From an uncultured Alphaproteobacteria bacterium (GTDB lineage Bacteria; Pseudomonadota; Alphaproteobacteria; CAAHEQ01; UBA3637), in NCBI GenBank assembly GCA_944393195.1, contig CALXZG010000001.1, positions 143,091 through 207,090 of the forward strand: a stretch of DNA of 64,000 nt, written 5' to 3'. The translations under genes were made by a program, and so were the position numbers. Below, in pieces: positions 1-60,326 of this stretch. Position 1 is the stretch's first letter. Each line of letters opens with the position of its first letter. The notes beneath the pieces were generated by a model, which worked only from the letters and a program-made list of their open reading frames with translations, was not told the origin of the DNA and made no database searches.

Positions 1-483
1 TCCGATTAAATTGGCTACCCGTGCTGCCCGCATTAAATTCATGTTCCCCGGTAAAATACTCTCATCATCGGTCACTCCTTTCGGGAAAACCATACCGTAG
101 ATAACTTGCCGCGGTGCTAGATCCGGATCCAAAATATAGGTAAATAAATAAAAATTATATGAATCAACCGTACTTCCGTAACCATCCGGAACAAATGCTT
201 TGACCTCGTCGGCAATCGCACTTGAACTGATAGCACATTGTTCAACATCACTTTGGGATGAAGCAACACATGTTCCTGACTCTAACGTCGCTTTGTCCGC
301 TTGAATATAGGCTGTTAATGCTTCTTTCATAATCCGCATTTCCGAGGCCATATTGACATTTTCCAATTCTTCATTTCGCTGCAATATCTGACGGAACAAA
401 ACCGTTCCCATTGTGCCCAACAAAGCCAGAACGGAAATGACTTCCACCATAATTGCGCCGCGTTCGTTTTTTTTTGTCATCAT
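1..483 (-). CDS. Type IV pilin-like protein (prepilin-type N-terminus), partial; the 3' end lies beyond the window start
   Basis: Minus-strand ORF runs off coordinate 1. ATG is the complement of 481-483, preceded by a GGAGG RBS (complement of ~487-493). N-terminus MMTKKNERG|AIMVEVISVLALLGTMG: short basic leader ending in Gly, Glu at +5, hydrophobic helix with Gly at +14, as in type IV pilins/pseudopilins. Not in the ORF track because it is truncated by the window edge. Confidence 0.55.
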   Translation of the reverse strand, partial: MMTKKNERGAIMVEVISVLALLGTMGTVLFRQILQRNEELENVNMASEMRIMKEALTAYIQADKATLESGTCVASSQSDVEQCAISSSAIADEVKAFVPDGYGSTVDSYNFYLFTYILDPDLAPRQVIYGMVFPKGVTDDESILPGNMNLMRAARVANLIG

Positions 484-9320: not shown

Positions 9321-11524
9321 CCCCATTAGACGAACTCAGTCAACAACTCGGCATCTGGCATTCATATTGGGAAAACGGCCAAGAATATGTCGCATCCCCC
9401 GGTATTAAAAAAGCCCTTTGTCAAGCGCTCGGATATCCGGCCGATACACCGACCGAAGCGCGTCAATCTTTGGCTAAATGGCGGATGGATCAGTTTGCTG
9501 ATTTTGTCCCGCCCGTTGTTGTGGTTCGTGAATGGGAAGTGGCTTCTCTCGCACTTGAAATTGTTATCCCGGTCGAAGCACAAACACAAACTCTGTCTTG
9601 GTTTTTAACGCGTGAAGATCAAACAACCGACGGCGGCACCCAAAATTTAGCGGATCTTCCTGTTTTGGATAGTTGTATCGTTAAAGATAAAACATATTTA
9701 AAAAAACGCCTTTCTCTATCTTTATCTGTTCCGCTCGGCTATCATACATTAACCTTTCTGCTGGATGGAAAAAAGCCGACATCCAATACCATGACAAACC
9801 TGATTGTCACACCGAATACCTGTTATATGCCGGCCGGCATGCAACGCGGTAACCGTGTTTGGGGATTACCGATTCAACTTTATGCCGTTTCCTCACAACA
9901 CAATTGGGGAATGGGTGATATGACGGATTTACGCTATCTGGCCGACGTGGCCGAAACACTCAAAGCTTCCTTTATCGGTGTGAATCCCTTAAACGCTTTG
10001 TTTCCGGATAGTCCCCAAGATGCCAGTCCGTATTTTGCAACGGCGCGAACGTTTTTAAATCCGCTTTATATTGATACCGATGCTATTCCTGAGGCGGCCA
10101 CATCTCCGGCCTATGCCGATTATCAAAAATCTGCCCGCTTTATCGAATTGTTGACGGCCGCTAAACAATCCCCGACGGTTGAATATGATTACGTGGCGGA
10201 AATGAAATATACCGCTCTTGGCATTTTATATGATACCTTTAAAAACCTGCACCTGACATCGGATTGGCAGGCAACAACGCCCCGCGGACAGGCTTTTTTG
10301 GATTTTTGCCAAGGACAGGATGATGACCTGACCTTGTTCGCTACACATCAGGCGTTGCGCAGTTATTTTGCCGCCCGCGGTCAAAGCCGATGCTGGGCGG
10401 ATTGGCCAAAAGGTTATCGAACCCCGACCTCATCCGCCGTCCGTGCTTTTCAAAAAACATATGCCGACAGTATCTGGTTTGCCAAGTATCAACAATTTAT
10501 TGCCGTCGAACAATTCGAAGCCGTTCGTGCCGCATATGATCGGCCGTCTTTACCCGTTGGCTTGTATACGGATTTACCGGTCGGCGTCGGTTTAGGGAGT
10601 GCCGAAGTGTGGATGCATCAGAATATTTTTCTCCCCGGTGTTTCCGTGGGGGCGCCCCCGGATTTTATGAATAAAAAAGGGCAAGATTGGTCGTTGGCCG
10701 CCTTTAATCCCATTCGCCTGAAGAAAACACGATATGCGTTTTTTATTCGCTTGTTGAAACGTATTATGCGTCCGTCCGGTGCTTTGCGGATAGACCACGT
10801 TTTTTCCCTGATGCGCCTGTTTCTACGCGTTAAAGGCGGCGGAGCCTACCTGTCATATCCGTTTCGGGATTTACTCGGTTTGGTTGCCTTGGAAAGCGTT
10901 CGTAATCGCACTATTGTGGTCGGTGAGGATTTGGGAACGGTCCCGCCCGGATTTATGGAAGAAATGGCGCGTGCCGGAACACTTTCTTTCCGATTGATGC
11001 AGTATCAGAAAAGGGACGGAAAATTAATGCCGCCCGGTGCCTATGAACACCGCTGCCTCATTACACCGGGAACACACGATATGCCGACTTACCCCGCTTT
11101 TTGGCAGGGGCTTGACCTGGATTTGAAAAAACGCCTGAAAACCATGTCGCCGAAACAATATAAAGCGGAACAAAACGCCCGTCCGGAAGAACGTCGACAA
11201 TTTGTGGATGCCTTTATTGCGGAAGGTCTTTTGCCCGATCAGGATCGAACCGCTTGGTTGTCTTCCGATCTGCCGGATTGGTTTATTCCGAATACATACG
11301 CTTTTTTGGCCCGAACCCCCAGCTTGATGTTGGTCGTCCGCTTGGAAGATATGGTCGGGCAAATCGAACAGGTTAATGTTCCCGGAACATATTTAAACTA
11401 TCCGAATTGGCGGTATAAATTACCTGTTCTGCTTGAAAATATAACATCGGATGATCGGATTATGACGATAGCCGAACGCATTAACCGCGAACGCCCTCTG
11501 ATACCGGAGAATATGAATGGATAA
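9317..11524 (+). CDS. malQ: 4-alpha-glucanotransferase (amylomaltase)
   Basis: GH77 family. Start ATG 9317 overlaps the glgX stop (ATGA) and follows a CAGGAGG RBS. The ORF-track N-terminal extension is rejected. Confidence 0.9.
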   Translation: MTPLDELSQQLGIWHSYWENGQEYVASPGIKKALCQALGYPADTPTEARQSLAKWRMDQFADFVPPVVVVREWEVASLALEIVIPVEAQTQTLSWFLTREDQTTDGGTQNLADLPVLDSCIVKDKTYLKKRLSLSLSVPLGYHTLTFLLDGKKPTSNTMTNLIVTPNTCYMPAGMQRGNRVWGLPIQLYAVSSQHNWGMGDMTDLRYLADVAETLKASFIGVNPLNALFPDSPQDASPYFATARTFLNPLYIDTDAIPEAATSPAYADYQKSARFIELLTAAKQSPTVEYDYVAEMKYTALGILYDTFKNLHLTSDWQATTPRGQAFLDFCQGQDDDLTLFATHQALRSYFAARGQSRCWADWPKGYRTPTSSAVRAFQKTYADSIWFAKYQQFIAVEQFEAVRAAYDRPSLPVGLYTDLPVGVGLGSAEVWMHQNIFLPGVSVGAPPDFMNKKGQDWSLAAFNPIRLKKTRYAFFIRLLKRIMRPSGALRIDHVFSLMRLFLRVKGGGAYLSYPFRDLLGLVALESVRNRTIVVGEDLGTVPPGFMEEMARAGTLSFRLMQYQKRDGKLMPPGAYEHRCLITPGTHDMPTYPAFWQGLDLDLKKRLKTMSPKQYKAEQNARPEERRQFVDAFIAEGLLPDQDRTAWLSSDLPDWFIPNTYAFLARTPSLMLVVRLEDMVGQIEQVNVPGTYLNYPNWRYKLPVLLENITSDDRIMTIAERINRERPLIPENMNG

Positions 11525-12266
11525 ATACAAAAAATCATATATAATCAAAAGCTACGAATGCGATTTTAAATTAAAACTTCGCGTTCGAAGTCTGTTTAAT
11601 TTGTTTCAGGATATGGCCGATGAACACGCCGATGAAATGGGGCTCGGCTACGCCTATTGCCACGAACGCGGTATCGGATGGATCGGTGGCGGCTACCATG
11701 TCGCTGTCAATCAATGGCCGACATGGGGCGACACAATTGAAATGAGTACTTGGCCTTCCGCCGCGACGGCCGCTACCGGTATTCGTGATTTTTCCGCCAC
11801 GAATCAAAAGGGGGAAACCTTGATTCGGGCAACAAGCCAATGGGTTCTTGTCGATACCAATCGTATGCGGCCGATTCCCGTCTTAAAACATATCCCGACA
11901 TACGAACTCTTGCCGGAAAGAGCTTTTATCTCTGATTTTGCAAAAATCATAACACCGGATACCCCGCCGGATGATGTCCGCTCTTTTCCGGTTCGTATCG
12001 ATGATATCGATTTAAACGACCATGTTAATAATGCCCTTTATCCGACATGGGTACTGGATGCTTTTGACGCGGATTTTTTGAAAAAGCATACTCTTTCCGA
12101 AATACAGGTTTCTTTCCGCCATCCCGCCCGATATCGGGATATCATTACCCTACAAACATGGCAAAAGCAGAATGAAACCGTTCATACCCTGACAAACGCG
12201 GATCATACGGTTGAATACGCCCGTGTCCGTTTGGTCTGGCAACAGGAACGTTCCCATGACGCATAA
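11517..12266 (+). CDS. Acyl-ACP thioesterase family protein
   Basis: 249 aa hot-dog-fold thioesterase. Start overlaps the malQ stop by 8 nt. Confidence 0.6.
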   Translation: MDKYKKSYIIKSYECDFKLKLRVRSLFNLFQDMADEHADEMGLGYAYCHERGIGWIGGGYHVAVNQWPTWGDTIEMSTWPSAATAATGIRDFSATNQKGETLIRATSQWVLVDTNRMRPIPVLKHIPTYELLPERAFISDFAKIITPDTPPDDVRSFPVRIDDIDLNDHVNNALYPTWVLDAFDADFLKKHTLSEIQVSFRHPARYRDIITLQTWQKQNETVHTLTNADHTVEYARVRLVWQQERSHDA

Positions 12267-13530
12267 CGCCGTTGTTTTACTCCCGTACCTGAAAGAATCA
12301 ACCGATGTTCGTTCTCCCGAGGCGCGCTTGGCCGAAGCTGTGGCATTGACGGCCGCTATCGATCTGACCGTTTTCCATGCCGAAGCCATTGCTTTGCGTG
12401 AAATTAAGGCCAATACGTACTTAGGAAAAGGGACGATTGAACGCTTGGAATCCGTTATGCGAGCCCATGAAGTTGAGGTTGTCATTATCGCGTGTGCGTT
12501 GTCCCCCTTGCAACAACGTAACCTGGAAAAAGCATGGCAGACAAAAGTCATTGATAAAACCGCCCTGATTTTGGAAATTTTCGGTCAGCGCGCCCGTACC
12601 CGTGAAGGTGTTTTGCAAGTTGAATTGGCGCACCTGACCTACGCCCGATCCCGTTTGGTGCGTTCTTGGACGCACTTGGAAAGACAACGGGGCGGTAGTG
12701 GTTTTTTGGGCGGTCCCGGTGAAACCCAAATTGAACTTGACCGCCGTTTGATTGATGATGATATTCTGAAAATTAAAAAGGAATTGGCTGAGGTTAAAAA
12801 AACGCGAGAATTACATCGCAAAGCCCGTCGCCGGGTACCGTATCCGATTGTGGCTTTGGTCGGATATACCAATGCCGGTAAATCAACCTTGTTTAATTAC
12901 CTAACGCAATCGGATGTTTTTGCCAAAGACATGCTGTTTGCCACCCTTGACCCGACCATGCGTCACGTCCGCCTGCCGAACGGAACCGAGGTTATCCTTT
13001 CCGATACCGTCGGTTTTATTTCCGATTTACCAACCGAACTGGTTATGGCTTTCCGTGCCACCTTGGAAGAGGTGTTGGAAGCCGACATTATCGTCCATGT
13101 TCGTGATTTTTCACATCCGGATACGGCCGCTCAGAAACAAGATGTCGAAGCCGTCTTGGCCGACTTGGGTGTCAAAGATAAAGTGGATGCCGGCTTGATA
13201 GAAGTCTTAAATAAAATTGATTTGTTGGATGAAGACGAACAAAACCGGATTTGTACCCAAAAAACACGCCATGATAAAGAATGGCCTGTGTCCGCTAAAA
13301 CAGGGCAGGGAATACATGATTTCCTGTGCCGTATTGAAACCGAATTGATGAAGGATTACCGCCTTCTTGATTTGTCTGTTCCGGTCGAACGCGGCGATGT
13401 TTTGGCCGCTTTATATCGCAAAGGCCATATTCTGTCCCGTAAAGACGGTACAAAACATATTCGAATGACGGTTTCTTTGCCGCCGAAAGAAGTCCCTTTG
13501 TTCCATACCTATGAAAGGAAAATAAAATGA
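12256..13530 (+). CDS. hflX: GTPase HflX
   Basis: HflX N-domain followed by a G domain (GYTNAGKSTLFNYLT, DTVGF, NKID). Start chosen at ATG 12256, overlapping the upstream stop. Confidence 0.9.
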   Translation: MTHNAVVLLPYLKESTDVRSPEARLAEAVALTAAIDLTVFHAEAIALREIKANTYLGKGTIERLESVMRAHEVEVVIIACALSPLQQRNLEKAWQTKVIDKTALILEIFGQRARTREGVLQVELAHLTYARSRLVRSWTHLERQRGGSGFLGGPGETQIELDRRLIDDDILKIKKELAEVKKTRELHRKARRRVPYPIVALVGYTNAGKSTLFNYLTQSDVFAKDMLFATLDPTMRHVRLPNGTEVILSDTVGFISDLPTELVMAFRATLEEVLEADIIVHVRDFSHPDTAAQKQDVEAVLADLGVKDKVDAGLIEVLNKIDLLDEDEQNRICTQKTRHDKEWPVSAKTGQGIHDFLCRIETELMKDYRLLDLSVPVERGDVLAALYRKGHILSRKDGTKHIRMTVSLPPKEVPLFHTYERKIK

Positions 13531-19891: not shown

Positions 19892-20314
19892 TTCCATTTC
19901 CTCCCGTAAGATAACTCCCTCGTTTATTGCGGCTACGGCTCTTTGTATAAAAATAGGAACATTGTCAGGCAACTTGTCCCAATCCGCTACAATAATATCG
20001 CCACATTTTTCCGGTTCGCAATTGCAAACGGTTCCCTGCCACCGATGGCATTCAAAATAAAACTGTAAATACTCTTCGCCGGCATCATGATGTAATATCA
20101 ATCGCAGATTTAAATCAGCCGGTTTGATATCAATTCCGACCTCTTCACGCGCTTCACGAATCATACCGTCTTTTAACGTTTCATTCCCGTCTAAATGACC
20201 GGCGATAAAACAATATTGTCCGGCAAAAGAAGCATTTTTACGTAATTGTAAATAGACCTGCTTCCCCTGTCGCAGAATTAAAAACAGCCCGACGGGCACT
20301 TTAAACCGTTCCAT
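19889..20314 (-). CDS. NUDIX hydrolase
   Basis: Nudix box GHLDGNETLKDGMIREAREEVGI. Confidence 0.85.
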   Translation of the reverse strand: MERFKVPVGLFLILRQGKQVYLQLRKNASFAGQYCFIAGHLDGNETLKDGMIREAREEVGIDIKPADLNLRLILHHDAGEEYLQFYFECHRWQGTVCNCEPEKCGDIIVADWDKLPDNVPIFIQRAVAAINEGVILREEME

Positions 20315-20381
20315 TTTGTCTCCTTATTTTTTTGCAAAGTGTACCTGATCTACCCCTAAAATGCAAGATATAAAAAAATAG

Positions 20382-20410
20382 CTTGCATTTTTCCGGAAAA
20401 TAGCATATAC
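20382..20410 (+). promoter_or_regulatory. Putative tRNA promoter
   Basis: TTGCAT, 17-nt spacer, TATACA, ending ~13 nt before the tRNA 5' end. A 10-bp inverted repeat AAAATGCAAG/CTTGCATTTT (20357-20390) overlaps the -35 element. Confidence 0.4.
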
Positions 20411-20423
20411 AAGTAACAGTTCG

Positions 20424-20500
20424 CGGAATGTAGCGCAGCCTGGTAGCGCACTTGTCTGGGGGGCAAGTGGCCGCGGGTTCAAATCCCGCCATTCCGACCA
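20424..20500 (+). tRNA. tRNA-Pro (anticodon GGG)
   Basis: Hand-folded cloverleaf: acceptor stem CGGAATG/CATTCCG, T-arm GGGTTCAAATCCC, anticodon stem CTTGT/GCAAG (one G-U pair) with loop CTGGGGG (anticodon GGG, G37), encoded CCA at the 3' end. Confidence 0.8.
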
Positions 20501-20536
20501 ATATCAAAAAGCGGAAGTTTATACTTTCGCTTTTTT
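20496..20536 (+). repeat. Left copy of a 41-bp direct repeat (att-like), starting in the last 5 nt of tRNA-Pro
   Basis: GACCAATATCAAAAAGCGGAAGTTTATACTTTCGCTTTTTT. Repeated at 24136-24177 with one substitution and one extra T. Contains a terminator-like hairpin. Confidence 0.8.
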
Positions 20537-20790
20537 ATGAGGTGATTGCCCGATAACCTATCGGTTCGAGATTAAAGCCCCTCTCTCAACCACAAAAGGG
20601 CATCTTCTTGTCTGAAAAGCAAATTAACCTCTTCTGTAGAAAGTTTTGTCTCAAGAGTTTGGGATTTGACAAACAATACCTATCATCAGCTATTAAAGCT
20701 TCTTATACGGGTTGATCTATCCTACAAACAAAAAAACAAATGCCTGCTCGGAAAAAACAGCATTTATAGCTTATGTATCTCATTTTTATC

Positions 20791-20819
20791 TTGCTTGTCC
20801 GCATATGACATGATACAAT
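20791..20819 (+). promoter_or_regulatory. Putative sigma-70 promoter of the islet gene
   Basis: TTGCTT, 17-nt spacer, TACAAT (20814-20819), ~50 nt upstream of the GTG start. Confidence 0.45.
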
Positions 20820-20867
20820 AGTCAGTTATATAGCATATATTTGATAATAGAGAAGGAGCAGTTATTC

Positions 20868-23800
20868 GTGCACAATAGATATTCAAACGGTCATGAGAGT
20901 GGACGTGCCGCATTGGAAATGATTCTAGTCTTATGTATTATGGGGATTTTGAGTATAGCCATTGTTGTGGGTGCCCATTACGCTATCATTCGAGCGCAGG
21001 TTGTTGAAACAGAGAATCTGATTTCCAAGTCTGTTGCCGGTGTTCGGACAAGCCATTATTTGGAAAATCTATCTCATCAATATGAAGCAGAAAATGAGGA
21101 TTTATTTGCCTTGGCTGAAAAAATTGAAACATCCTTTTATATCAGCGATATTGCTTTATCCCAACCCGGTGATAAGGAATATGATTTGTATGGTGGAGAA
21201 AACTTTAAAGGGCCGGCCGGAACGGTGATTTCTGCTAATGTTTTAGTAAATGGATTAGGTCTTATTATCAACCTAAACCAAATATCAACAGAAATTTGCG
21301 AAGCCATATTAGAACATAAATTAGGCTATGAGGCGGCTTTTCGTTTAAATGATTTATATTCACAGGGCGGATATTTAAGTATCAGTGATAATAGCATCTT
21401 CCACGCACAAGACAGTGTGATTGGCTCAACCGGCGCTGAGGTGCGCACAAGATTGTGCGCTCCGGATATAAAAGATGCTTATGGATTAGAGAACGTTGCA
21501 CATATCGGATTATTATTCAGTGCTTCTCCTGATAGGAATATCTCATTTGACTGTGAAGGGGCTTGTTCTTCATGTACACAGTGTATTCTAGATATGTGTC
21601 TACCAATCAAGAAAGACATTTGCGGAGAGCTGGCCTATTATGACTACCAAAGCTGCTCTTGTCGATGCTATGCCAATACCAGTGGGGATCCTCACACAAA
21701 GTGTGAATGTCCATCCGGCACATTTTTTGACACAGATAAAAAGAAATGCGTCTTATGCCAAACGGATCAGGATTGTTATCAACAAAACCCCTATAAACCT
21801 TTTTGTGAAGAGGATGGCATGGCTTGTTGGGGATGTTCAGATTACGCCAAAACAGACGATAGCTATAAAAACTCGGTTTTTGTGTTGCCAAGCAACAGTC
21901 CTGGCACCCAAGAGCCTCAGAACTTTGATCCAAGCAGTACCTGCTTAACCTGTGCGGCGCAAGGTCTTCACGAAAAGTGGGTAGATAATAATTTGCTGTG
22001 TGTGGAGTGTAATACGGATGATGATTGTCACCACCAGGAAACTTTGCGTATCTGTGATCAAGAGACCAACACATGCGTCTGCCCCGGCATGATGACATGG
22101 AACGATAAGTCCGGACGATGTGAGTGTATTGTAGATGTATCGGGAGATCATTTTGACAACCAAAACTGTGTCTGTGCGACAGGGTATGAAACCGTGATAA
22201 CAACCAATGCGGAGAATCAAGAGGACATATCCTGTTTCTCACCTTGTGTTGGACTGGGAATGACAGGCGTTCGTGAAAATGGCGTGTGTTTATGTGATAC
22301 CAGTAAGGGATATTTAAGATTGGCCATCTCGACCGACGATAATGGACAACCCATTACTCCCTATTGTCCCTGTGACACTGATCAGGGATATTTTCAAGAT
22401 GCCAATGGTGGGTGTGTCAAATGTCATCCTATATCCGATGAACAAAAGAAGGCCTTTGAAGATGGTTCTATTGATCCCCATACATATGTGGATACATGGA
22501 ACTGTGGCCGTTCGTATCTAGGGTTTGTACGCTGGTTTAATCCGGACTATACACAAGATGCGCGTCTGACTAACGGTGAAAAATATTGTCCTGACGGATG
22601 GGTATTGAAACGAGAGCATGATGTCACCAAAGAGCTCAAAATCGATGATAGAACCTATCAGGTCATTGATGTAGACAAGTCCAGCGGTTTATTTAAATGT
22701 ACCCCATGTCGGGATCTAACGGATCCCAATGGAAAACCTGCCATAGCGGAGGGAACGGGTTGGGGATATTGTGGATGCGGTCGCTATACGATCCCAATAT
22801 ACTATACAGCTGAGAATGCTCTGAACAATAAGCGGGGCTCAGGAGGCACTTGTCAAAGTTCTTGCTATGACACCTATAAAGCATGGTATCAAAACGAAAC
22901 GAGTGAGGATGCCACTGCCAGAAAGGGATATCATCTAGATTCTTTTGATGCAAGAAATTCCTCTTTTGGAACAGGAAGTGAGGCCGAAGGATGTGGATGG
23001 AATTGGAACTATAATTTTATCAGCGATCAACCGGGACAACGATTTGAAGATATCGCTATTCCCCAGGGAAAAGATGAGTGGAAAAAGGTCAACATTGCTC
23101 GCACAGATTGTGGGATAAACGGAGAACGCCCTCTTTGGGATAAAAACGGGCGTAGAAACTTTTCTTATGAGCGCTGGTATAGAAACACTCCTCAGAAGTG
23201 TCATCCGGGCAACCATTACTATTATCAAACGATGAGCGGTGATTGTTCCTATGAAAAAGGATGCACCACGACGTATCTCTCTTTGGCGGCTTGCGGCGCT
23301 AATGTTCAGATAAAAGATTGCACCTGCGAAGGGAGTTATGTTGCTCGGGGGGCGAATAAGGACATTTGCTGTCATAAAAATCAATACCTGAAGGGTAGCC
23401 AATGTGTTTATTGTCCGACGGGACAAATTCCCAATATGGATGGCACGGCTTGTATCGTATGTAAAGCCGGAGAATATGTCGAAAATGGAGCATGCTTGGC
23501 ATGTCCAGCCGGTTCCGAGCCTAATACCGACAAAACCGGTTGCATTGCTTGTCGAGAAGGATATGCGGTCCAAAACGGAACATGTCAAAAATGCCCCAGC
23601 GGATATATTCCCAATACAAATAAAACAGCATGTGAAGCCTGTAAAAACGGCATGATTGTCATATCCGAGTATCAGAATGGTCTATTAACCAAGACCTATT
23701 GTGATTGCCCCAAGACTCAGTTCGAGGTTAAAGACAACGTCACGGGAGAGACCTACTGTCGAACCTCAGAGGAGGATAAATGCTATAATGGTGTCTGCTG

Positions 23801-41949: not shown

Positions 41950-42144
41950 ATGATTGATATTGGTGCGGATATTCGTAATTTGGTTCTACCGGAATGCTTA
42001 AAAGAAAACCCGGAACGTGTTGAAACGGAAGAGGCTGTTAAAAAGCCTGTTGAAAAAACACCGAATAAACCCAAAGTGATTGCAACACGGCGTCGGCCGA
42101 AGTTTAAACAACCACCGCGTAACCGTCGCGGAGCACGTGTTTAA
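41950..42144 (+). CDS. Small basic hypothetical protein (64 aa)
   Basis: Strong AGGAGG RBS 6 nt upstream of the ATG. Followed by a clear terminator. Confidence 0.4.
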   Translation: MIDIGADIRNLVLPECLKENPERVETEEAVKKPVEKTPNKPKVIATRRRPKFKQPPRNRRGARV

Positions 42145-42174
42145 TACCCGTTTTACATTTATATACTGATGATG

Positions 42175-42207
42175 AAAGGGGACGATTTTCATTGTCCCTT
42201 TTTTATT
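42175..42207 (+). terminator. Rho-independent terminator
   Basis: AAAGGGGAC-gattttcatt-GTCCCTTTT followed by TTTTATTG. Confidence 0.6.
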
Positions 42208-42276
42208 GTTGATAAGCCCCTTATTCTTATACTTTTGATAATCTGTGGTATTGCATGGCTTATAAAGCAGTCCGTT

Positions 42277-42398
42277 ATCCTCTATAATTTTACGTCATCC
42301 TTGCGAAAGCGGAGATCTTTTAACCATCCTACTCCCTCATCCTCTATAATTTTACGTCATTCCCGCGTAGGCGGGAATCTTTGGACGCATACACTCTT
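42277..42398 (+). repeat. Tandem ~62-bp repeat (2 units); each unit carries a TATAAT box and a hairpin
   Basis: Both units start ATCCTCTATAATTTTACGTCAT. Unit B then has the perfect palindrome ATTCCCGC-GTAG-GCGGGAAT (42359-42378); unit A has a degenerate copy (ATCCTTGCGAAAGCGGAGAT). Confidence 0.7.
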
Positions 42399-42516
42399 CC
42401 AATTCCAACATCCGCTTGCCGGCGGCGACTTCCGCTGCCTTGGCACGCGGTGTTTCATTGCTTTGCGCATCAAAACTTGCCACCGGCAACTTTTGATTTA
42501 CGCAGTATCCTTGGGC

Positions 42517-42843
42517 TTGACCCGAGAATCTTCCAACGCACACAACGAACGGGGTCGGAGTATGGTTGAAATGTTGGGCGTTCTGGCCGTAGCCGGTGTG
42601 TTATCGATCGGTGGCGTGGCCGGGTATCGGTATGCGATGGACAAGATGAATGCGAATGACATTATTAACGAAGTAAAAAAAAGAGCCGTGACGGCAAGTC
42701 AACAACGGATTTTGGGACAGAATATCAGTTTAGCAGAGTACGGGGATAACGGACGGATTAAAGGAATTCATACTGTCACAGCGACAAACGATTATGCGGG
42801 TGACAAAGGGTTCTTTGCATTAACGGTATCGGCGGTACCGTAA
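42517..42843 (+). CDS. Small pilin-like protein (prepilin-type N-terminus); possibly the N-terminal fragment of a disrupted pilin-EGF fusion gene
   Basis: Leader ...TRESSNAHNERG|RSMVEMLGVLAVAGVLSIGGV parallels the islet protein (NGHESG|RAALEM...): Gly, Arg at +1, Glu at +5, Gly at +14. Start uncertain: TTG 42511, TTG 42517 or ATG 42562, none with a good RBS. Ends at TAA 42841-42843, which is in frame with the next ORF. The ORF-track 42169 start is rejected because the upstream part is repeat/non-coding DNA. Confidence 0.5.
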   Translation: MTRESSNAHNERGRSMVEMLGVLAVAGVLSIGGVAGYRYAMDKMNANDIINEVKKRAVTASQQRILGQNISLAEYGDNGRIKGIHTVTATNDYAGDKGFFALTVSAVP

Positions 42844-42867
42844 CGGGTATGCGATGCAATTCTGAAA

Positions 42868-43611
42868 ATGGATTGGAATATGCCGGTTGAAACAGCCGTT
42901 GGGGAATTTATCGTAGATGATGACACGGTATGCGCCGAAGGCGATAATGAAATGTTGTTTGCTTTCCATAATACCTTGGACAACTCACTCGTCCCGGGGG
43001 AAGGGGGAGAAGAAACCCTGAGTCCAGATGAAGCAAAGTGTTCCGGAAATGGAACGTGGGATGGAACAGCTTGTGCCTGTGCCGATGGTTGGATCGGGGA
43101 TGATTGTTCAACATCGTGTGTGCTTAAAGGACGTGATGGCAATTGTTATTCTTGTGATAGCACAGAAATCGTTAGGATTGATGATAGCGCGGATTGCCGT
43201 GTTTGTGATGGTGTGACCGAAACAAAGCGATATATATCCTTTCAAAATGGAAAAACATGTGTTTTAGGAAATGATTGTCCCGATGGGTCAACACCGGACG
43301 ACTCGACGGGATATTGTGAATGCCCCAACGGACAATTTTTTACCTTGGGTTTTAGCAACACATGCGTGACATGCGAAGACGCTTTTGATGATGATCATAT
43401 TTCAGTTTTAGAGGACAAGGTAGACGAAATTTGTAGTATGTGTGGATTGGACGTAACGGATTATTATGCGCCGAACAAACAAGCAATTGACGGATCACTG
43501 ATTTGTGTCAACCTCGATGAAGCAAAGTGTTCCGGTCATGGAACGTGGAACGGATGTGGATGTGATTGTGACACCGGTTGGTGTGGGAGTGGTTGCTCAA
43601 CGGGGTATTAG
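42868..43611 (+). CDS. Cys-rich EGF-like domain protein with no signal peptide; likely the C-terminal portion of the upstream pilin-like gene (pseudogene or readthrough)
   Basis: Same reading frame as 42517-42843, separated only by TAA plus 24 nt. Two EGF-like signatures: CSGNGTWDGTACACADGWIGDDC and CSGHGTWNGCGCDCDTGWCGSGC. 38 Cys in 247 aa. No secretion signal of its own. Confidence 0.5.
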   Translation: MDWNMPVETAVGEFIVDDDTVCAEGDNEMLFAFHNTLDNSLVPGEGGEETLSPDEAKCSGNGTWDGTACACADGWIGDDCSTSCVLKGRDGNCYSCDSTEIVRIDDSADCRVCDGVTETKRYISFQNGKTCVLGNDCPDGSTPDDSTGYCECPNGQFFTLGFSNTCVTCEDAFDDDHISVLEDKVDEICSMCGLDVTDYYAPNKQAIDGSLICVNLDEAKCSGHGTWNGCGCDCDTGWCGSGCSTGY

Positions 43612-43629
43612 TTGCATCATACCCAAAAT

Positions 43630-43666
43630 CAAAAACCGCGGAGGATTTCCGCGGTTCTTTTTTTAT
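43630..43666. terminator. Bidirectional rho-independent terminator
   Basis: AACCGCGGAGGATTTCCGCGGTT followed by TCTTTTTTT, between convergent genes. Confidence 0.7.
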
Positions 43667-43679
43667 AATTAAATCTTGT

Positions 43680-45725
43680 TTAACCGTCTTCCAAAAAGCT
43701 GCGCAGTTTTCGGGAACGGGTGGGGTGCTTTAATTTCCGCAAAGCCTTGGCCTCAATCTGCCGAATACGTTCACGTGTCACCGCAAATTGTAACCCGACT
43801 TCTTCCAACGTGTGGTCCGAATTCATCCCGATACCGAAGCGCATCCGCAACACCCGCTCTTCACGGGGGGATAACGTCGCTAAAACGGCGGTACACGATT
43901 GCCGCAGGTTTGTTTGAATGGCGGCTTCCAAAGGTTGTACCGTGTTCTTATCCTCAATAAAGTCCCCTAAATGGCTGTCTTCTTCGTCCCCCACCGGCGT
44001 TTCTAATGAAATCGGTTCTTTGGCGATTTTCATGACTTTTTTGATTTTATCAACCGACATATTAATCCGCGGAGCCAACTCTTCCGGTGTCGGTTCGTGT
44101 CCCGTTTCCAACATCATTTGGCGACTTGTCCGCAGCATTTTATTAATAGTTTCAATCATATGCACCGGAATACGAATTGTCCGAGCCTGATCCGCAATCG
44201 CCCGCGTAATGGATTGACGAATCCACCATGTTGCATATGTGGAAAATTTATATCCGCGCTGATATTCAAACTTGTCCACGGCCTTCATTAAGCCGATATT
44301 GCCTTCCTGAATTAAATCAAGGAATTGCAACCCGCGGTTGGTGTACTTTTTCGAAATGGAAATCACTAACCTCAGGTTAGCTTCAATCATTTCCTGTTTT
44401 GCCTTATTTGTTTCCTGCTTACCCTTTTTAACCGTTGTCACCAATTTACGGTATTCCGAAATAGGAATCTTGACCTCTTCAACAATGTGTTGAATTGCCG
44501 TCCGAATATCTTGAATTTCCGGTTTGTGTTTTGCAATAAAGTCTTTCCAATGCTTGTCCGTCCGCTTGGCCGCTTTACTGACCCACTTCTCATCCATTTC
44601 ACTGTTTTGATAGGAAGCCAGAAAATCATCCCGATCTATTTTACAGGCCGTCGCCAATCGCAATAACTTGCCTTCCAACATCATTAATCGTTGGTTGATA
44701 TCCGTTACCTGATCAATTAAAAAGTCAATTTTGGCCGGATTTAAATGGATATTTTTTAACCGCTCCGTCAATTCCTTTTTAAGTGTCAGATACTTTTTCT
44801 CCAAAGTCGCCGGCACTTCTTTTTTCTTAAAAATTAAGCCAAATTTATCCTGCTGAACAACTTCGAATTTTTGATATACCGCTTCAATATCTCCCAAAGC
44901 TTCTAAAATCTGAGGCAGTAAATTTTCTTCCATTTGTCCGATAGACAAAATATTTTCATCATCGTCATCGTCATCATTTTCATCCGGACCATTTCCCCGA
45001 GAGTCCGCGTCAAAAGCATCAATTTCGTCCAGATCCTCACTGCTTTTCCGCGTACTTGTCGCCTCTTTTTCGGCCTTGGCCTTTTTACCACCCGATTTTT
45101 CTTCTTTTTCCAACAAAGCTAAATCGGCATCCGCCTCTTTGCGTATCCTTTCCGCTTTGTCCATTTGCTCTTTGTTGGGGTTGGCTTCAAAAGTTGCTTC
45201 CAGGTCTATCAACTCGCGCAACAAAATTTCACCGTCCAATAACTGCTTGTGCCATTTGGATAACGATTGCATAGTCATCGCACTTTCGGCCAAACCGCTC
45301 ATCATCACATCAACGCCGGCCGAAATCCGTTTGGCAATGGCAATCTCTCCCTCGCGGGATAATAACTCAACCGCCCCCATTTCCCGTAAGTATAAACGAA
45401 CCGGATCATTGACACGCGCCCCGACATCGGTTTCCTGGGTATTTTCTTCCACCGTCGGTGCCGAATTTTGTAATTCGGTTAAATCCGTAATATCTTCGCT
45501 ACCGTCAATGACATTAATTCCCATATCACTGAAAGACGAAATGATGACTTCCAAAGCGTCTTCCGTTTGGGATTCCTGGGGCAACGTTTTTTTTAATTGA
45601 TCCAAGGCAATAAAGCCACGCTCTTTCCCTTGTTCAATCAATTTTTTCATCAGAGATTTTGAATCACTTATACCCGCTTCCAAGGAAACGGCAGACATTT
45701 CTTCATTTATCGCGCTAGGGGTCAT
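43680..45725 (-). CDS. rpoD: RNA polymerase sigma factor RpoD (sigma-70)
   Basis: Regions 1.1-4 are present, with an acidic ([11 protein letters not shown]) non-conserved insert. Start taken at ATG (MTPSAINEE...). The ORF-track TTG at 45752 is an alternative. Confidence 0.9.
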
Positions 45726-48109: not shown

Positions 48110-48805
48110 ATGACACATGTAACACTTTCGATTTTATACGGATTCCTCATCGGATTATTGCTGCCGGCCATTGCCGGTCGCTTCGGTAAGATTTTACCTG
48201 CCGACCCCGGTCTTGTTCTTCTTCGCCTGATCCATTTTCCCCGTTGCCCCCATACCGATAACCGATCCCGTCGTCACCGCTTTTTCCGGTTGTGGGGTAA
48301 ATTCACCGCCTTCACACTCCTTTGGGGTGTCCTGCTTGCCACTTTGTTTGGAATAATAGATCTCTTTATAACACCCGGCTTTATCCTGTGGGCCAAAGTA
48401 TTTACCACCATTATCTGCCTGTGCGTTATTATCGATCAAAAATATCTTCTGTTGCCCGACTTTTTTACAATCCCTCTGCTCCTGATCGGATGGGCGGCGG
48501 CCGTGTATATCGGTATCGTACCGGTTGAATATAGCTTAGCCGGTGCCGCTTTCGGGTATCTGGTTTCTACTCTTTCCGTTGTCTTAATGGGACTTTTTCG
48601 CCATCCGGAATTCGGGGGCGGGGACGTAAAAATGGTCACGGCTCTCGGGGCATGGTTCGGAATGCCGGGATTAAACTTTACCCTGATCTTGGCCTTTTTA
48701 CTGTTCGCAATGCCCGCCACACTCGCTTCTCGCAGGCGTGGTCCGTTCGGTCCCGCTTTGGGAGTGGCCGCCTTGATAACCCTGTTTATAATTTACGGCA
48801 AATAA
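48110..48805 (+). CDS. Prepilin peptidase (A24 family), single-domain form
   Basis: Polytopic membrane protein with both catalytic Asp motifs: IIDQKYLLLPDFF (compare ID..H.LLPD) and GGGDVKMVTALGAWFG (compare GMGDVKLLAALGAWLG). Only a single Cys (RCPH) where PilD has its tetracysteine loop. Confidence 0.7.
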   Translation: MTHVTLSILYGFLIGLLLPAIAGRFGKILPADPGLVLLRLIHFPRCPHTDNRSRRHRFFRLWGKFTAFTLLWGVLLATLFGIIDLFITPGFILWAKVFTTIICLCVIIDQKYLLLPDFFTIPLLLIGWAAAVYIGIVPVEYSLAGAAFGYLVSTLSVVLMGLFRHPEFGGGDVKMVTALGAWFGMPGLNFTLILAFLLFAMPATLASRRRGPFGPALGVAALITLFIIYGK

Positions 48806-49796: not shown

Positions 49797-50864
49797 ATGA
49801 ATTTTGAACAAAAACTGGAAACGATTTTATCGCGCCATGAGGAATTAACGGCTTTGTTATCCGCCGGCGCATCTGGCGATGAATTTGTTAAATTATCTAA
49901 GGAACTCAGTTCGTTGGATGAAGTTGTTAAAGTCGGGAATGAATATAAAAAATGTGTGTCTGACTTGGCCGATACCGAAGCTTTATTAACGGATGAATCC
50001 CTGGACGCGGATATGAAAGAGATGGCCTCGGAAGAATTACGCACCCTGCGGGATAAATTGCCGGAATTGGAAAAACAAATCCAAATTTTATTGTTGCCCC
50101 GGGATGAAGCGGACGACCGCAACGTCATTCTGGAAATTCGGGCCGGCACAGGGGGGGAGGAAGCCGCTCTTTTTGCCGCCGAATTATTCCGCATGTACGA
50201 ACGATATGCGGCCAACCGCGGTTGGAAATTCGAAACATTGTCTTTGAATGATACGGGATTAGGCGGTTATAAAGAAGCCGTCGCCCAAATTTCCGGACAC
50301 GCCGTTTTCGCCCGCCTTAAATTCGAATCGGGTGCCCACCGTGTCCAACGGGTTCCGGAAACGGAAGCCGGCGGACGCGTCCATACGTCGGCGGCTACCG
50401 TTGCTGTTTTACCCGAGGCTCAAGAGGTGGACGTTAAAATTAACGAAGCCGACTTGGAAATTACCACTTGCCGTGCTTCCGGTGCCGGCGGACAACACGT
50501 GAATAAAACGGATAGCGCTATCCGTATTGTCCATAAACCGACCGGTATCGCCGTCGAATGTCAGGAAGAACGTTCTCAGTTTAAAAACAAAGAAAAAGCC
50601 ATGACCCGCCTGCGGACAGCGTTATACGATATGCAACGTCAGGCCTTGGATAAGGAGCGTTCCCAAAACCGTAAAAATCAGGTCGGATCCGGTGACCGTT
50701 CCGAACGTATCCGTACTTATAATTTCCCCCAAGGACGCGTCACGGATCATCGTATCAATAAAACAAGCTATCAACTCCATGAATTTATGGATGGCAACTT
50801 GGATGAATTTATTGATGCCCTGATTATGGAAGATCAAATGGCGCGGCTGGCGGAAATTGATTGA
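49797..50864 (+). CDS. prfA: Peptide chain release factor 1
   Basis: PxT-containing domain and GGQ motif ([16 protein letters not shown]). Confidence 0.95.
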
Positions 50865-51643
50865 TGGACGAAATTCACCGCATTGCCCAAAAATTAACAC
50901 CTGTTTCCGACACACCATTGTCGGATGCCCGTTTATTGACTGCTGCCGCCCGTTCTGCCGAAGAATTAGCCGCTTTCATTGATCGCCGTTGCCAATGCGA
51001 ACCGGTTTCTAAAATCATCGGTCGTCGCGGTTTTTGGAAAAGCGATTTTATTACAACAAAGGATGTGCTCGATCCGCGTCCCGACTCCGAAACAATGATA
51101 GAGGCCGTTTTGCATACTTGTTCCGACACGACACAACCTTATCGTATTTTGGATATCGGCACCGGTTCCGGTTGCCTGTTGTTCAGCTTGCTGGACGAAT
51201 ATCCCAATGCCCGCGGTACCGGCTTTGATATTTCCGAACAGGCTTTGACCGTTGCCTGTGCAAATCAAGGTAGCCGTCAGGCCGATTTAAGGGTAGGGGA
51301 CTTTATGCACTCGTTCCCAACCGATATGGGACTATTCGATATCGTTGTATCAAATCCCCCTTATATTCCGACGGCGAATATAGCCACTCTGGCACCGGAT
51401 GTGCGCCTTTATGATCCGATAATCGCTCTGGATGGCGGTACGGACGGTCTAGATGCCTATCGCGCTTTGACGCGCCATATTCCATCCGTTTTATCCTCAA
51501 AAGGATTCGTTTTTTTAGAGGTTGGCATTCATCAATCCTCCTCGGTCGCTGCCTTGTTTGAAGCAAGCGGTTTTCACCATATCGCCACCCATTCGGATTT
51601 GGGTGGCATTCCCCGTATCGTTGTTTTACAAAAGGAGTCTTAA
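50861..51643 (+). CDS. prmC: Release factor glutamine methyltransferase
   Basis: NPPY motif (VVSNPPYIP) and SAM-binding DIGTGSG. Start overlaps the prfA stop. Confidence 0.9.
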
Positions 51644-57115: not shown

Positions 57116-58147
57116 ATGAAAAACATGACAGATAAGCTGACACGTCCCGCTTTGAAACAAGCCGATACAAAAGTTTCGGAAGCCGATATGATTTACTTTT
57201 CGTTGGGCATCGATACCGCAACGGATTTTGTGTTGCCGTCCGAAAGGGATGACTATCGTTCGGATAAACGCGCCGTTCAATTGGTGCACGACATTCGGGC
57301 CGGCAAAGATATGTCCGGTCGGGATTTCAGTGGTATTAACCTGAAAAACGCGGATATTTCCGGTGGCCGGTTCCAAGGTGCCTCCTTTAAAGGTGCCGTG
57401 TTTTATCAGACGCAAGCCGCCGATTGTGACTTTACCGATTGTGATTTTACCGAGGCTTATTTGGAAGACAGCGATTTTTCCCGTTCATGGTTTACCGGTG
57501 CCCGCTTTCAAAAAGCATACTTGCGCCATTTAACGTTGGATGAAGCACATTTGGATGACGAAGCCCGTAACCGGATAACCGCTATGGATAAGCTGATAGA
57601 TCTGATTGAATCCGGCGAAATCGATATTCACAACTTAACGGAATCTGATTTGCTTTTCCTTGATTTGCGTCGTCTGGACCTGTCTAAAGTCGATATCTCC
57701 GACATGGATTTATCCATGTTTAATTTGGAAGGGGTCAACCTTCGCGGTACCTACGTACCGCCCGGTATGCTGCTCAGTTTAAAGGAACTGAAACACAACT
57801 ACCTCCGTGTTCAAGCTTTGAATGAAAAAAAATTAAAGGCCGAAACGCTGAAAGTCCTCAAACAAAAACAGGACGAATTAATGGCGTATGCACAGTCTGC
57901 GGTTAATCATAAACCGGTCATTGATACCATGCCGATACACGATCAGAACCTGAAACGTCCCCCCATAAAGCAAGACGAATTTGACCGTTCCGTTCCGTCT
58001 CCCACACCGGTATCGTCCCCGAAAAAGACGGAAACGGACGAAACCAATCGTCCGCCCCGCACATCGCACAGGGAACCGACACAACCGATTTTGATGCCAC
58101 GTTTGCGCCGGTTGGCTAAAACCAAGAAAGTAAAGGCAAGAACCTGA
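57116..58147 (+). CDS. Pentapeptide-repeat protein with C-terminal basic/Pro-rich tail
   Basis: Multiple A(D/N)LxG-type pentapeptide tandem repeats (DMSGRDFSGINLKNADISGGRFQGASFKGAVF...). C-terminal ~80 aa is Lys/Arg/Pro rich. TATAAT overlaps the first ATG, so the start may be ATG 57125 (possibly leaderless). Confidence 0.75.
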   Translation: MKNMTDKLTRPALKQADTKVSEADMIYFSLGIDTATDFVLPSERDDYRSDKRAVQLVHDIRAGKDMSGRDFSGINLKNADISGGRFQGASFKGAVFYQTQAADCDFTDCDFTEAYLEDSDFSRSWFTGARFQKAYLRHLTLDEAHLDDEARNRITAMDKLIDLIESGEIDIHNLTESDLLFLDLRRLDLSKVDISDMDLSMFNLEGVNLRGTYVPPGMLLSLKELKHNYLRVQALNEKKLKAETLKVLKQKQDELMAYAQSAVNHKPVIDTMPIHDQNLKRPPIKQDEFDRSVPSPTPVSSPKKTETDETNRPPRTSHREPTQPILMPRLRRLAKTKKVKART

Positions 58148-58148
58148 T

Positions 58149-60326
58149 ATGATACACTTGAATCCCGCTTTTAAATCCCGTCGAAACGCTATTAAATGGT
58201 GGTCATGGCGCGCCCTGATCGGTGTTATGATTTTATGGGCGCTTTTGCTCTTTTTTCTGCCGTTTTGCTTGTGGTTACAGCCCAGCTATCAAGGTTCCCT
58301 CTGGTCGGTTGTTTCCGCCTTTTGGAAACAAACGGTGACACAAAATCTTTTCTTTCCGCTCAAAGCCTGGGGAGGGTGGTTGACTTCTTACCTGTTCCGG
58401 GAACCGATTCATACCCAATGGTCCTCTTTCTTTGCTTGGAAACTCCCCCTTATTCCAACTATGGCTTTTGTTTTGTATGAAATCTGGTTGTTTGTTCAGA
58501 ATCCGTTTACCATGGATGATCAAACATTCGGGAGCGGTCGTGAAGCCCGCCCTTCCGATGTGGAAAAAATGGGACTTTTTAAAGGGAAATACCTTTTTCT
58601 CGGCCTCTATCAGGGGCGCAAAATCAAATTGCCTGATACCCGATCCGTCTTTTGTATCGGCGCCCCCGGAAGCGGCAAAACCATGGGAACCGTCGTCCCC
58701 GCCATTCTGGAAATGAACGATGCCTGCCTGATTATTAACGATCCCAAAGGTGAGTTGGCTAAATTGACAAGTGGTCACCGTGCAACACTCGGCCCCGTGT
58801 TTATGATGAATTGGGGGGCGACGGATGAACCGGCCAAAGGTATTTGCTGGCCCTCATGGAATCCGATCGGCGGCGGTAACCTGCCACCGCTTCACGCCGG
58901 CCGAGAAGCCTATATCGACGGCTTGATTTCTTTCCTTATCCCCGACGGTCCGACCGGTACCGATCCCTATTGGGTCAAAACCGGACGCGGTTGCCTGACC
59001 GGCTTAACCGGCTATCTGTGCGGTAAAGTGGACCAAGCCAAAGCAAACGACTATTTTGTTGCCCGTTTAAGGGAAGGGGGCTTGGATGATGAAGATTACG
59101 CCGTTTTGCTCTCCTATTATCGGTCCATGCGTGATTTCAAAGAAGTCAAAGAAGCCATCCGTAACGCCGAAAATAAAACCATTACACGGGACAATTATCT
59201 ACCGATCGGAAAGTGGGATCCGATTCCCGAAAACTGGCGCGGTAATGAAGCTTGCTTTGCTATGCTGTTGGATATCATTACCTCCTCCCAAATTCGTATT
59301 AACGAAGAATTGGCAGAACGAAAACGTCAACGGGATTTAAGCGCTACAACAACAGATGCCTGGAAAATTATTTTGGAAGACATTGTTCTGGAAACCGCCT
59401 ACTACGGCTACGGCCGCCGAACTTTGTTGGAATTGAATCAAGTACTCAGTCTGCCGGATAAACAACGCGGATCCGTCATTTCAATGGCGCTGTCCGGCAT
59501 TAATCTCTTTAAGAATGCTGCCGTTCGTGTACGCACGTCCATGAATGACTTTGATTACGCCCATCTGCGCGGTATGAAAGATCCCGAAACGGGTACGTAT
59601 AAACCGATTACCATCTATTTGTCCGTCCCTTATGAAGACTTGAATTCATCCGTTTTGTTAAGTACCCTCTTTATCAATATGGCAACCGGCTACTTAATGG
59701 AATTCGGCCCGAACGAGGGTAAGGTGGGACCATATCCGATGGGCTTTATTTTGGACGAATTCCAACATATGCCTTCCTTACAAAGTATTTCCGACGGGAT
59801 TGTTTTCGGACGGGCAAAACAAAACATGTTCTTTGTCGTTGTGCAGGATTGGCACCAAATCTCTGCCAAATACGGTAAAGAAACCGCCCAAGTGGTCATG
59901 AGTTCCAGCGCCGTTAAAATCATTAAACGACAAAATAATCCGGAAACCCGTAATCCGCTCTTAAAAGGCATTACCCCCTTAACCAAAGTTGTCCATAGTT
60001 ACAGCGGTAAGTTTAATTCGTTAATCAGCTTTTTCCCAAAATCCGATATGAAAAAAGACCTTTTCCGTATTTGGGATCATGGTTATTCACATAAAATAAA
60101 GATCCAATCCGATTCCGTTATCGGCGGTTCCGGTATTCTCAGTATGGCAATCAATAAACAATTGGTCTTGTTTTCCGGCCACCTCAATACCCCTATCCGC
60201 GCCGAAACACCGCTTTGTTATAAAAATGCTACTTACAAAGCCTTAACCGCTCTTCCGCCGGCACCTAAAATGCCGCCGGAAATGGAACATGACGATACAA
60301 TCATCCAATCTATTGCGTCTATTTAG
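58149..60326 (+). CDS. Type IV secretion coupling protein (VirD4/TraG family)
   Basis: N-terminal TM helices, Walker A FCIGAPGSGKTMGTVVPAIL, Walker B ILDEFQHM, and GSGREARPSD resembling the TraG GSARWA motif. No relaxase or VirB genes in the window. Confidence 0.75.
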   Translation: MIHLNPAFKSRRNAIKWWSWRALIGVMILWALLLFFLPFCLWLQPSYQGSLWSVVSAFWKQTVTQNLFFPLKAWGGWLTSYLFREPIHTQWSSFFAWKLPLIPTMAFVLYEIWLFVQNPFTMDDQTFGSGREARPSDVEKMGLFKGKYLFLGLYQGRKIKLPDTRSVFCIGAPGSGKTMGTVVPAILEMNDACLIINDPKGELAKLTSGHRATLGPVFMMNWGATDEPAKGICWPSWNPIGGGNLPPLHAGREAYIDGLISFLIPDGPTGTDPYWVKTGRGCLTGLTGYLCGKVDQAKANDYFVARLREGGLDDEDYAVLLSYYRSMRDFKEVKEAIRNAENKTITRDNYLPIGKWDPIPENWRGNEACFAMLLDIITSSQIRINEELAERKRQRDLSATTTDAWKIILEDIVLETAYYGYGRRTLLELNQVLSLPDKQRGSVISMALSGINLFKNAAVRVRTSMNDFDYAHLRGMKDPETGTYKPITIYLSVPYEDLNSSVLLSTLFINMATGYLMEFGPNEGKVGPYPMGFILDEFQHMPSLQSISDGIVFGRAKQNMFFVVVQDWHQISAKYGKETAQVVMSSSAVKIIKRQNNPETRNPLLKGITPLTKVVHSYSGKFNSLISFFPKSDMKKDLFRIWDHGYSHKIKIQSDSVIGGSGILSMAINKQLVLFSGHLNTPIRAETPLCYKNATYKALTALPPAPKMPPEMEHDDTIIQSIASI

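Follow-up and report, generated by a model that had tools for sequence, protein, structure and literature searches.

The split open reading frame (ORF) at positions 42517–43611 of a 64,000-nucleotide (nt) stretch of DNA from an uncultured alphaproteobacterium (GTDB lineage UBA3637; GenBank assembly GCA_944393195.1, contig CALXZG010000001.1, positions 143,091 to 207,090 of the forward strand) is very probably a recently inactivated copy of a gene from a modular, type IVb-like pilin family. We refer to the whole stretch, at its full length, as the window. Judged by its sequence, the copy is a pseudogene: it carries a TAA where its relatives encode Gln or Glu, a deletion has taken away its ribosome-binding site, its ATG and the start of its leader, and the same locus in a second strain (contig L093) is broken differently. 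Neither half would yield a working product, because the front is an incomplete pilin without start signals and the back has no export signal. As the frame and the cysteines are otherwise intact, the inactivation would be recent. The pseudogene itself is ordinary; the unannotated family that surrounds it deserves more attention.

A preliminary description of the locus, made from the sequence without database searches, located the two ORFs exactly. On the + strand, a frame of 108 codons opens at a TTG (42517) and ends at the TAA at 42841–42843; a 24-nt gap (42844–42867) separates it from a second ORF, which begins at an ATG (42868) in the same frame as the TTG (351 = 117 x 3) and runs to 43611, encoding 247 Cys-rich residues. 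The N-terminus of the first ORF reads SNAHNERG|RSMVEMLGVLAVAGVLSIGG, with Gly at −1, Glu at +5 and then a hydrophobic stretch, as in a class III (prepilin) signal. The Gly, the Glu and the hydrophobic stretch of this signal, which reads NERG|RSMVEMLGVLAVAGVLSIGGVAGY in the window copy, are nearly invariant in the 56 homologues compared. The Pfam N_methyl profile (PF07963) reached 13.5 bits (E 0.055) on the window copy, below its 21.2 cut-off, and NCBIfam matches were weak. The second ORF begins with an acidic, non-hydrophobic sequence (MDWNMPVETAVGEFIVDDD...) and therefore has no signal peptide of its own, as had been reported. Aside from its two lesions, the gene is open over 365 codons and retains every cysteine.

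A search of 5.8 billion protein clusters with the fused translation, read across the stop, gave 200 matches. All 14 homologues that were aligned (368–618 aa) are uninterrupted at the stop site, reading ...FFALTVSAVPQRVCDxILKQDWxMPVE... across it; the residue at the stop column is Gln in 12 and Glu in two, so that the TAA is one transition from CAA. In this alignment conservation extends about 55 residues past the stop, up to ...NEMLFAFxNTLD, and fused residues 112 and 139, both downstream of the stop, form a Cys pair invariant in 56 sequences. The stop therefore falls inside a conserved N-terminal module, not between modules, and the final third of the pilin module makes up the first ~50 residues of the 247-aa "Cys-rich ORF". 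Because homology to uninterrupted proteins crosses the stop, the in-frame arrangement is not a matter of chance. Sequence comparison thus supports the view that both ORFs belong to a single pilin-plus-Cys-rich gene, which a nonsense codon splits. The preliminary description had proposed as much, and the 14 continuous homologues and the CAA of L093 bear it out; it had, however, placed the TAA between the pilin-like N-terminus and the Cys-rich part, and this layout has to be abandoned. At the family level the modular pilin arrangement is carried on continuous polypeptides of 368–618 aa, that of the window copy being interrupted. No uninterrupted version of the window gene was present among the 5.8 billion protein clusters, in which its Cys-rich module occurred at >90% identity only as the split ORF P0001. 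In the public record this back half is entered as a separate 243-aa hypothetical protein, P0001, which should be annotated as a pseudogene rather than as a stand-alone hypothetical protein.

That the TAA arose as a sequencing or assembly artefact, the organism having a true CAA or the contig being a chimera of paralogues with the gene intact, is quite unlikely, although the locus invites such errors: the flanking repeats break assemblies from eight samples, and 42427–42738 is common to paralogues. An identical NfeD gene, lying upstream, was recovered in contigs from these eight samples (99–100% DNA identity), and all eight NfeD-side contigs end at 42062–42426, at or before the palindromic repeats described below and short of the pilin-like gene. 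A Logan contig from run ERR4096482, on the other hand, is 100% identical to window positions 42739–43845 (1107 bp), TAA included, and joins this segment to the unique C-terminal module and rpoD. Since a second assembly reproduces the TAA, it is no artefact of a single assembler. The split ORF P0001 has been recorded, moreover, from three size classes of contig, and a k-mer assembler is unlikely to create a junction between two short palindromes, such as that found at the 5' end of the gene.

Exact look-ups of RpoD, DnaG and the N-terminal fragment (with ten alternative starts) returned no record, and neither rpoD nor the NfeD gene lay beside a family gene at any of 80 family loci from GTDB. 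The locus of P0002, the closest full-length homologue, was rejected as an orthologue; it is flanked by seryl-tRNA synthetase and another tRNA synthetase gene and is a paralogue. An RpoD search reached the orthologous locus from the rpoD side, on contig L093 (ERZ17292904), whose rpoD flank matches that of the window at 99.06% identity over 2649 nt. The L093 allele has CAA (Gln) at codon 109 and keeps the leader-coding sequence upstream of its palindromic element. After ...VPQRV, pilin residues 112 to about 165 are lost and the frame is shifted, and a 92-aa ORF in another frame carries only two epidermal growth factor (EGF)-like units. The locus has therefore been broken in two ways in two strains, and the TAA is derived and strain specific; a sense codon, which the preliminary description had advised seeking in related loci, is indeed present between 99% identical flanks. 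The pilin modules of the window and L093 are only 88% identical, compared with 99% for the flanks, which points to sequence exchange with paralogues. The locus illustrates the rapid turnover of modular pilin genes between strains.

We also considered whether short and long isoforms might be produced in a regulated manner, by readthrough or by re-initiation at the ATG at 42868 or 42880. The two ORFs share a frame and are 24 nt apart, and the base following the stop is a C, which makes a weaker termination context. Against this, TAA is a genuine stop and the commonest in the window, ending 28 of its 45 genes. The window copy was alone in having a stop among the 94 family matches in fetched loci that span the codon-109 column; L093 has CAA there, and in distant relatives the residue is K, E, Q, S, T or another. 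A product ending at the TAA would have only part of the pilin fold, the gene lacks its own 5' start signals, no Shine-Dalgarno sequence precedes the ATG at 42868 or 42880, and a product initiated at either would have no signal peptide. Gln is encoded preferentially by CAA in the window, and no RNA element was found near the stop with Rfam, whose sole match in the window was a tRNA (20424–20497). Regulated isoforms are therefore extremely improbable. Stop-codon reassignment and programmed readthrough were likewise rejected, as TAA is a normal terminator here, the remaining 93 family copies all lack a stop in this column, and release factor 1 (RF1) is encoded, together with PrmC, at 49797–51643. 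The preliminary description had left three explanations standing: of these, a pseudogene or strain variant is favoured, regulation of isoforms is unsupported and an assembler error is unlikely.

While only the nonsense interruption had been named before, and is real, the gene carries a second lesion by which its 5' expression signals have been lost. We aligned the 5' region with the paralogue loci of P0002 (L002) and P0007, whose genes both open with AAAGGAG-N6-ATG and a leader reading MTEIKMENGKSNV...SFLGLTRESSNAHNERG. The window shares with the P0002 locus a segment at 42274–42510, the last 99 nt of which are 99% identical to L003, and matches the paralogue again from ...TTGGGCTTGACCCGAGAATC onward; about 460 bp in between are absent. 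In the paralogue, the start of the leader (MTEIKMENGKSNV...) and the ATG lie within these ~460 bp, together with the AAAGGAG ribosome-binding site and a promoter-like site, which is the only one of L002. In the window, no promoter-like site was found between 42204 and 42517, nor any Shine-Dalgarno sequence at the remaining candidate starts, which are TTG codons. To judge from the sequence at the junction, recombination between two palindromic elements is the likely cause of the deletion.

Palindromic elements of this type, with the form CGTCAT(T/C)CC-stem-loop-stem-GG(A/G)ATC, were seen in several related metagenome-assembled genomes (MAGs), for example at 7451 and 7687 of L002 and at 6503 and 6749 of L094, a contig of a sister species. 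Their stems vary yet remain complementary. In the paralogues, the elements lie in frame within the leader-coding region, where they are translated as ...IPAFAGMTESS... or ...SFLGLTRESS... and extend the leader to about 45–65 residues, recalling the Rickettsia palindromic elements. They also coincide with assembly breakpoints.

The fold of the pilin module was modelled with AlphaFold2 (57 aligned sequences) on P0002 rather than on the window copy. The module was predicted confidently, with a predicted local distance difference test score (pLDDT) >90 over residues 70–190, and comprises a helix of 46 residues (54–99), two strands, a short helix (143–151) and two further strands (159–162 and 177–185). 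The stop corresponds to P0002 residue 143, just past the second strand. On this model, the short helix, two strands and the disulfide are missing from the N-terminal ORF, which therefore cannot be a complete pilin. The P0002 model has the long helix, antiparallel sheet and C-terminal Cys pair of a pilin fold, which the window copy encodes in two pieces. When the model was compared with the PDB using Foldseek, the top matches were TcpA filaments (8uhf), the type IVb pilus of enterotoxigenic Escherichia coli (ETEC; 9iuf) and CofA (3vor), with probability ~1.0, E values of 1.6e-3 to 6e-3 and template modelling (TM) scores to the target of 0.37–0.45. A sequence profile found no solved relative in the PDB at E up to 1.

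TcpA of Vibrio cholerae and CofA of ETEC are thus the best structural matches of the family pilin module, and the alpha-1 sequences of the family follow a similar pattern to theirs. TcpB and CofB are large minor pilins, and CofB, situated at the pilus tip, carries extra domains behind its pilin module. The family differs from TcpA and CofA in lacking a sequence-level link to the solved structures, in having Arg as residue +1, and in that its genes are dispersed between housekeeping genes instead of forming a pilus operon.

The Cys-rich C-terminal module contains two Cys motifs, CACADGWIGDDC and CDCDTGWCGSGC, each of which fits C-x-C-x2-G-W-x4-C. They lie within an 86-nt direct repeat (43027–43112 and 43516–43601; 74% identical). 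The two "textbook" EGF-like signatures noted earlier are accordingly present as motifs, but the Pfam match to EGF_Teneurin on the window copy is only sub-threshold (20.1 bits, E 6.8e-4, cut-off 24.3); precomputed matches to EGF_Teneurin or EGF_TEN exist in three homologues. The Cys-rich part of the P0002 model was predicted with low confidence. Like the EGF repeats of tenascin and teneurin, the units of the window protein share CSGHGxWxGxxCxCxxGWxGxxCS; unlike them, they belong to a bacterial protein and have four to five Cys, with no clear six-Cys unit. Relatives of the Cys-rich module always stand behind a pilin module in the same ORF. In P0003, for example, the same order of sub-motifs follows an intact pilin module, at 42% identity to the Cys-rich module of the window.

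At least 558 relatives are encoded among the GTDB species representatives, nearly all of them in MAGs of uncultured gut Alphaproteobacteria (from human, rabbit, goat, sheep and buffalo hosts) and many per genome. A profile search of 1.84 billion representatives of clusters defined at 50% identity returned 6,022 clusters with E no higher than 1e-3, of which 659 were at or below 1e-30. No Pfam or NCBIfam model matched the family at or above its curated cut-off, and we found no description of this modular pilin family in the literature. The genes stand singly among housekeeping genes or in tandem groups of three to four, the latter in the MAGs SIG53 (L028, L030 and L055), BRZ_KF82 (L026 and L034) and BRZ_CI89 (L045 and L054); SIG53 has at least 17 family copies.

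Modular type IV pilins have been described in Streptococcus sanguinis, in which PilB carries a vWA module and PilC a lectin module, and more than 1,200 such proteins in 264 architectures have been catalogued (Raynaud et al. 2021, PMC8179133). The present family resembles them in its class III signal, its small pilin module and a C-terminal module that is not specific to pili and would be exposed on the filament. It differs in that its modules are disulfide-rich and EGF-like or C-type-lectin-like, with no Pfam match above threshold, in that it is multi-copy (at least 17 in one MAG), and in that the window copy is inactivated.

Some pairs of paralogues in the same genome combine pilin modules that are 96–100% identical with C-terminal modules that are only 35–50% identical, and the regions upstream of the paralogues are also in common (92–99% identity). 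The combination of conserved pilin modules with divergent C-terminal modules suggests module shuffling or gene conversion. It would also fit the notion that the window copy is a silent donor cassette, that is, a promoterless reservoir whose C-terminal module could be moved into an expressed member by recombination via the conserved 5' pilin module. The common upstream regions fit this notion as well, as do the 88% identity of the pilin module between two strains whose flanks at the locus are 99% identical and the loss of promoter and start codon from the window copy. We nevertheless regard a silent cassette as unlikely. No expression locus or recombination machinery was identified; a nonsense codon in the conserved module would be co-transferred in many exchanges; the L093 allele, with part of the pilin module lost and a frameshift, resembles decay more than maintenance; and most family members are full-length, a ribosome-binding site and ATG being present at both paralogue loci examined at the 5' end.

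The obvious comparison is with pilS of Neisseria, to which the window copy is similar in being promoterless and non-expressible and in having conserved sequence in common with expressed paralogues. pilS, however, has no conserved 5' coding part and donates variable 3' segments to a single pilE, whereas the window copy has a 5' pilin module, although a broken one, and most of its paralogues look independently expressible. Read as a silent cassette, the window copy would be conserved at its 5' end and variable at its 3' end. By extension, though we hold this to be unlikely, the family may be a recombination-driven system of adhesin variation on a type IVb-like pilus of uncultured gut Alphaproteobacteria. 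The upstream region, leader and pilin module would then form a nearly identical, portable 5' unit, used as the recombination handle that shuffles many eukaryote-like Cys-rich modules, with promoterless copies as silent donors. A diversity-generating retroelement had been considered as the origin of the variation among C-lectin-like paralogues and was dropped, no template repeat having been found near P0007.

Returning to inactivation of a pilin family gene as the favoured reading, we propose that intact family members would be made with a leader ending in Gly, which the prepilin peptidase encoded at 48110–48805 would cleave. The long hydrophobic alpha-1 helix would then serve as its anchor within a type IV filament, and the filament would display the variable disulfide-rich C-terminal module outside the cell, where it would most likely be a gut adhesin. 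In the window copy, (i) a change of CAA to TAA at codon 109 cuts the fold short, so that its final helix, two strands and the conserved disulfide are lost, and (ii) with the ~460-bp deletion between two palindromic elements, the promoter region has gone, along with the ribosome-binding site, the ATG and the beginning of the leader. While these lesions are seen in the sequence, we infer all three of the functional elements of this proposal, namely the non-expression of the window copy, the adhesin role and the assembly into filaments. If displayed on filaments, the family proteins would be prime candidates for mediating gut attachment of uncultured Alphaproteobacteria. A Peptidase_A24 gene also occurs in the sister species contig L094, at the same position as in the window. 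The peptidase gene of the window is situated among housekeeping genes (encoding YqeY, DnaG, a RodZ-like protein and RF1), and its product gave no separate match to a methyltransferase domain.

Several points weigh against this reading. Weak expression of the window copy may occur from a TTG start or through read-through transcription. The Logan contig may share the read set of the window; it therefore excludes an assembler error, whereas the consensus may still represent a minor variant. The interval 42427–42738, being repeated among paralogues, has no unique Logan contig, and therefore the link between the 5' junction and the C-terminal module of the window rests on the original assembly. With regard to filament assembly, Pfam scans found no pilus assembly ATPase or platform gene in the window, and a Walker-A search of 1.3 Mb of family flanks, a crude motif search, found only FtsK, UvrA/B, PriA and ABC proteins.

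Table 1. Positions in the window of the split pilin-like gene, its flanking elements and related genes
Feature	Position	Strand	Remarks
Third pilin-like N-terminus	1..483	-	NERG|AIMVEVISVLALLG; weak ComGE/GspG matches; gene runs off the window
"Islet" protein, 1041 aa	20841..23966	+	Distant intact relative; pilin module, then long Cys-rich region
Terminator-like hairpin	42174..42203	+	Precedes the pilin-like gene; follows the SPFH/NfeD operon and a 64-aa ORF
Two copies of a 50-nt repeat	42271..42382	+	Each ends in a small palindromic element: CGTCATCCTTGCGAAAGCGGAGATC, CGTCATTCCCGCGTAGGCGGGAATC
Upstream segment in common with the P0002 locus	42274..42510	+	77% identical to L002 7384-7631
Deletion junction	42510..42517	+	GTATCC|TTGGGCTTGACCCGAGAATC (GTATCC|TTGGGC...), within a hybrid palindromic element
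Front of pilin module	42517..42840	+	Leader remnant, Gly-1 (42553-42555), Glu+5 (42568-42570), alpha-1 helix, first strands
In-frame TAA	42841..42843	+	Derived from CAA (Gln)
Rest of pilin module	42844..43011	+	RVCDAILKMDW...NEMLFAFHNTLDNSLVPGEGG; invariant Cys pair; takes in ATG 42868 of the 247-aa ORF
Cys-rich C-terminal module	43012..43611	+	Two EGF-like units around a ~140-aa Cys-rich core; stop TAG 43609-43611
Bidirectional intrinsic terminator	43631..43659		Between the pilin-like gene and convergent rpoD
Prepilin peptidase (Peptidase_A24), 231 aa	48110..48805	+	E 3.4e-17, above cut-off; 4.5 kb away from the pilin-like gene

A six-frame motif search located two further genes with pilin-like N-termini in the window (Table 1). 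The N-terminus of the "islet" protein reads SNGHESG|RAALEMILVLCIMG, parallel to that of the window copy, and its first ~195 residues align with the family pilin module (hhalign probability 95%, E 2e-8); the resemblance between the two pilin-plus-Cys-rich proteins that had been pointed out is therefore real, though distant. The tRNA gene at 20424–20497 is located ~340 bp upstream of the islet gene, and G+C content is 0.41 at 20001–22000, compared with ~0.46 elsewhere in the window. Directly upstream of the third pilin-like gene is a 454-aa ORF (552–1919, -) with a hydrophobic N-terminus (GGTMVFWATVLVFIISILTY) and no Pfam match; the two genes may form a small pilin operon at the edge of the window.

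Between the NfeD gene and the terminator-like hairpin that precedes the pilin-like gene, a 64-aa, very basic ORF (...RRRPKFKQPPRNRRGARV; 41950–42144, +) gave no family match. It was called as a gene in six of the eight contigs of the species that were fetched, the other two ending within or before it.

The position beside rpoD that is occupied by the pilin pseudogene in the window holds a diversity-generating retroelement in L094 (9874–13909, downstream of rpoD), a contig of the sister species, the RpoD of which is 84% identical. This element comprises a reverse transcriptase (10446–11807), bAvd (12040–12441), a template repeat (11825–11936) and a variable repeat (9874–9991) at the 3' end of a 139-aa gene; every difference between the template and variable repeats falls at a template adenine, on the coding strand. 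The gene directly upstream of bAvd (492 aa) encodes a pilin N-terminus of the family type (NESGRSMVETLGVLAV). Farther along the window, at 57116–60326 (+), a gene for a pentapeptide-repeat protein is followed by one for a TraG/VirD4-type coupling protein (T4SS-DNA_transf, E 1.4e-38); no further conjugation genes were seen near these two.

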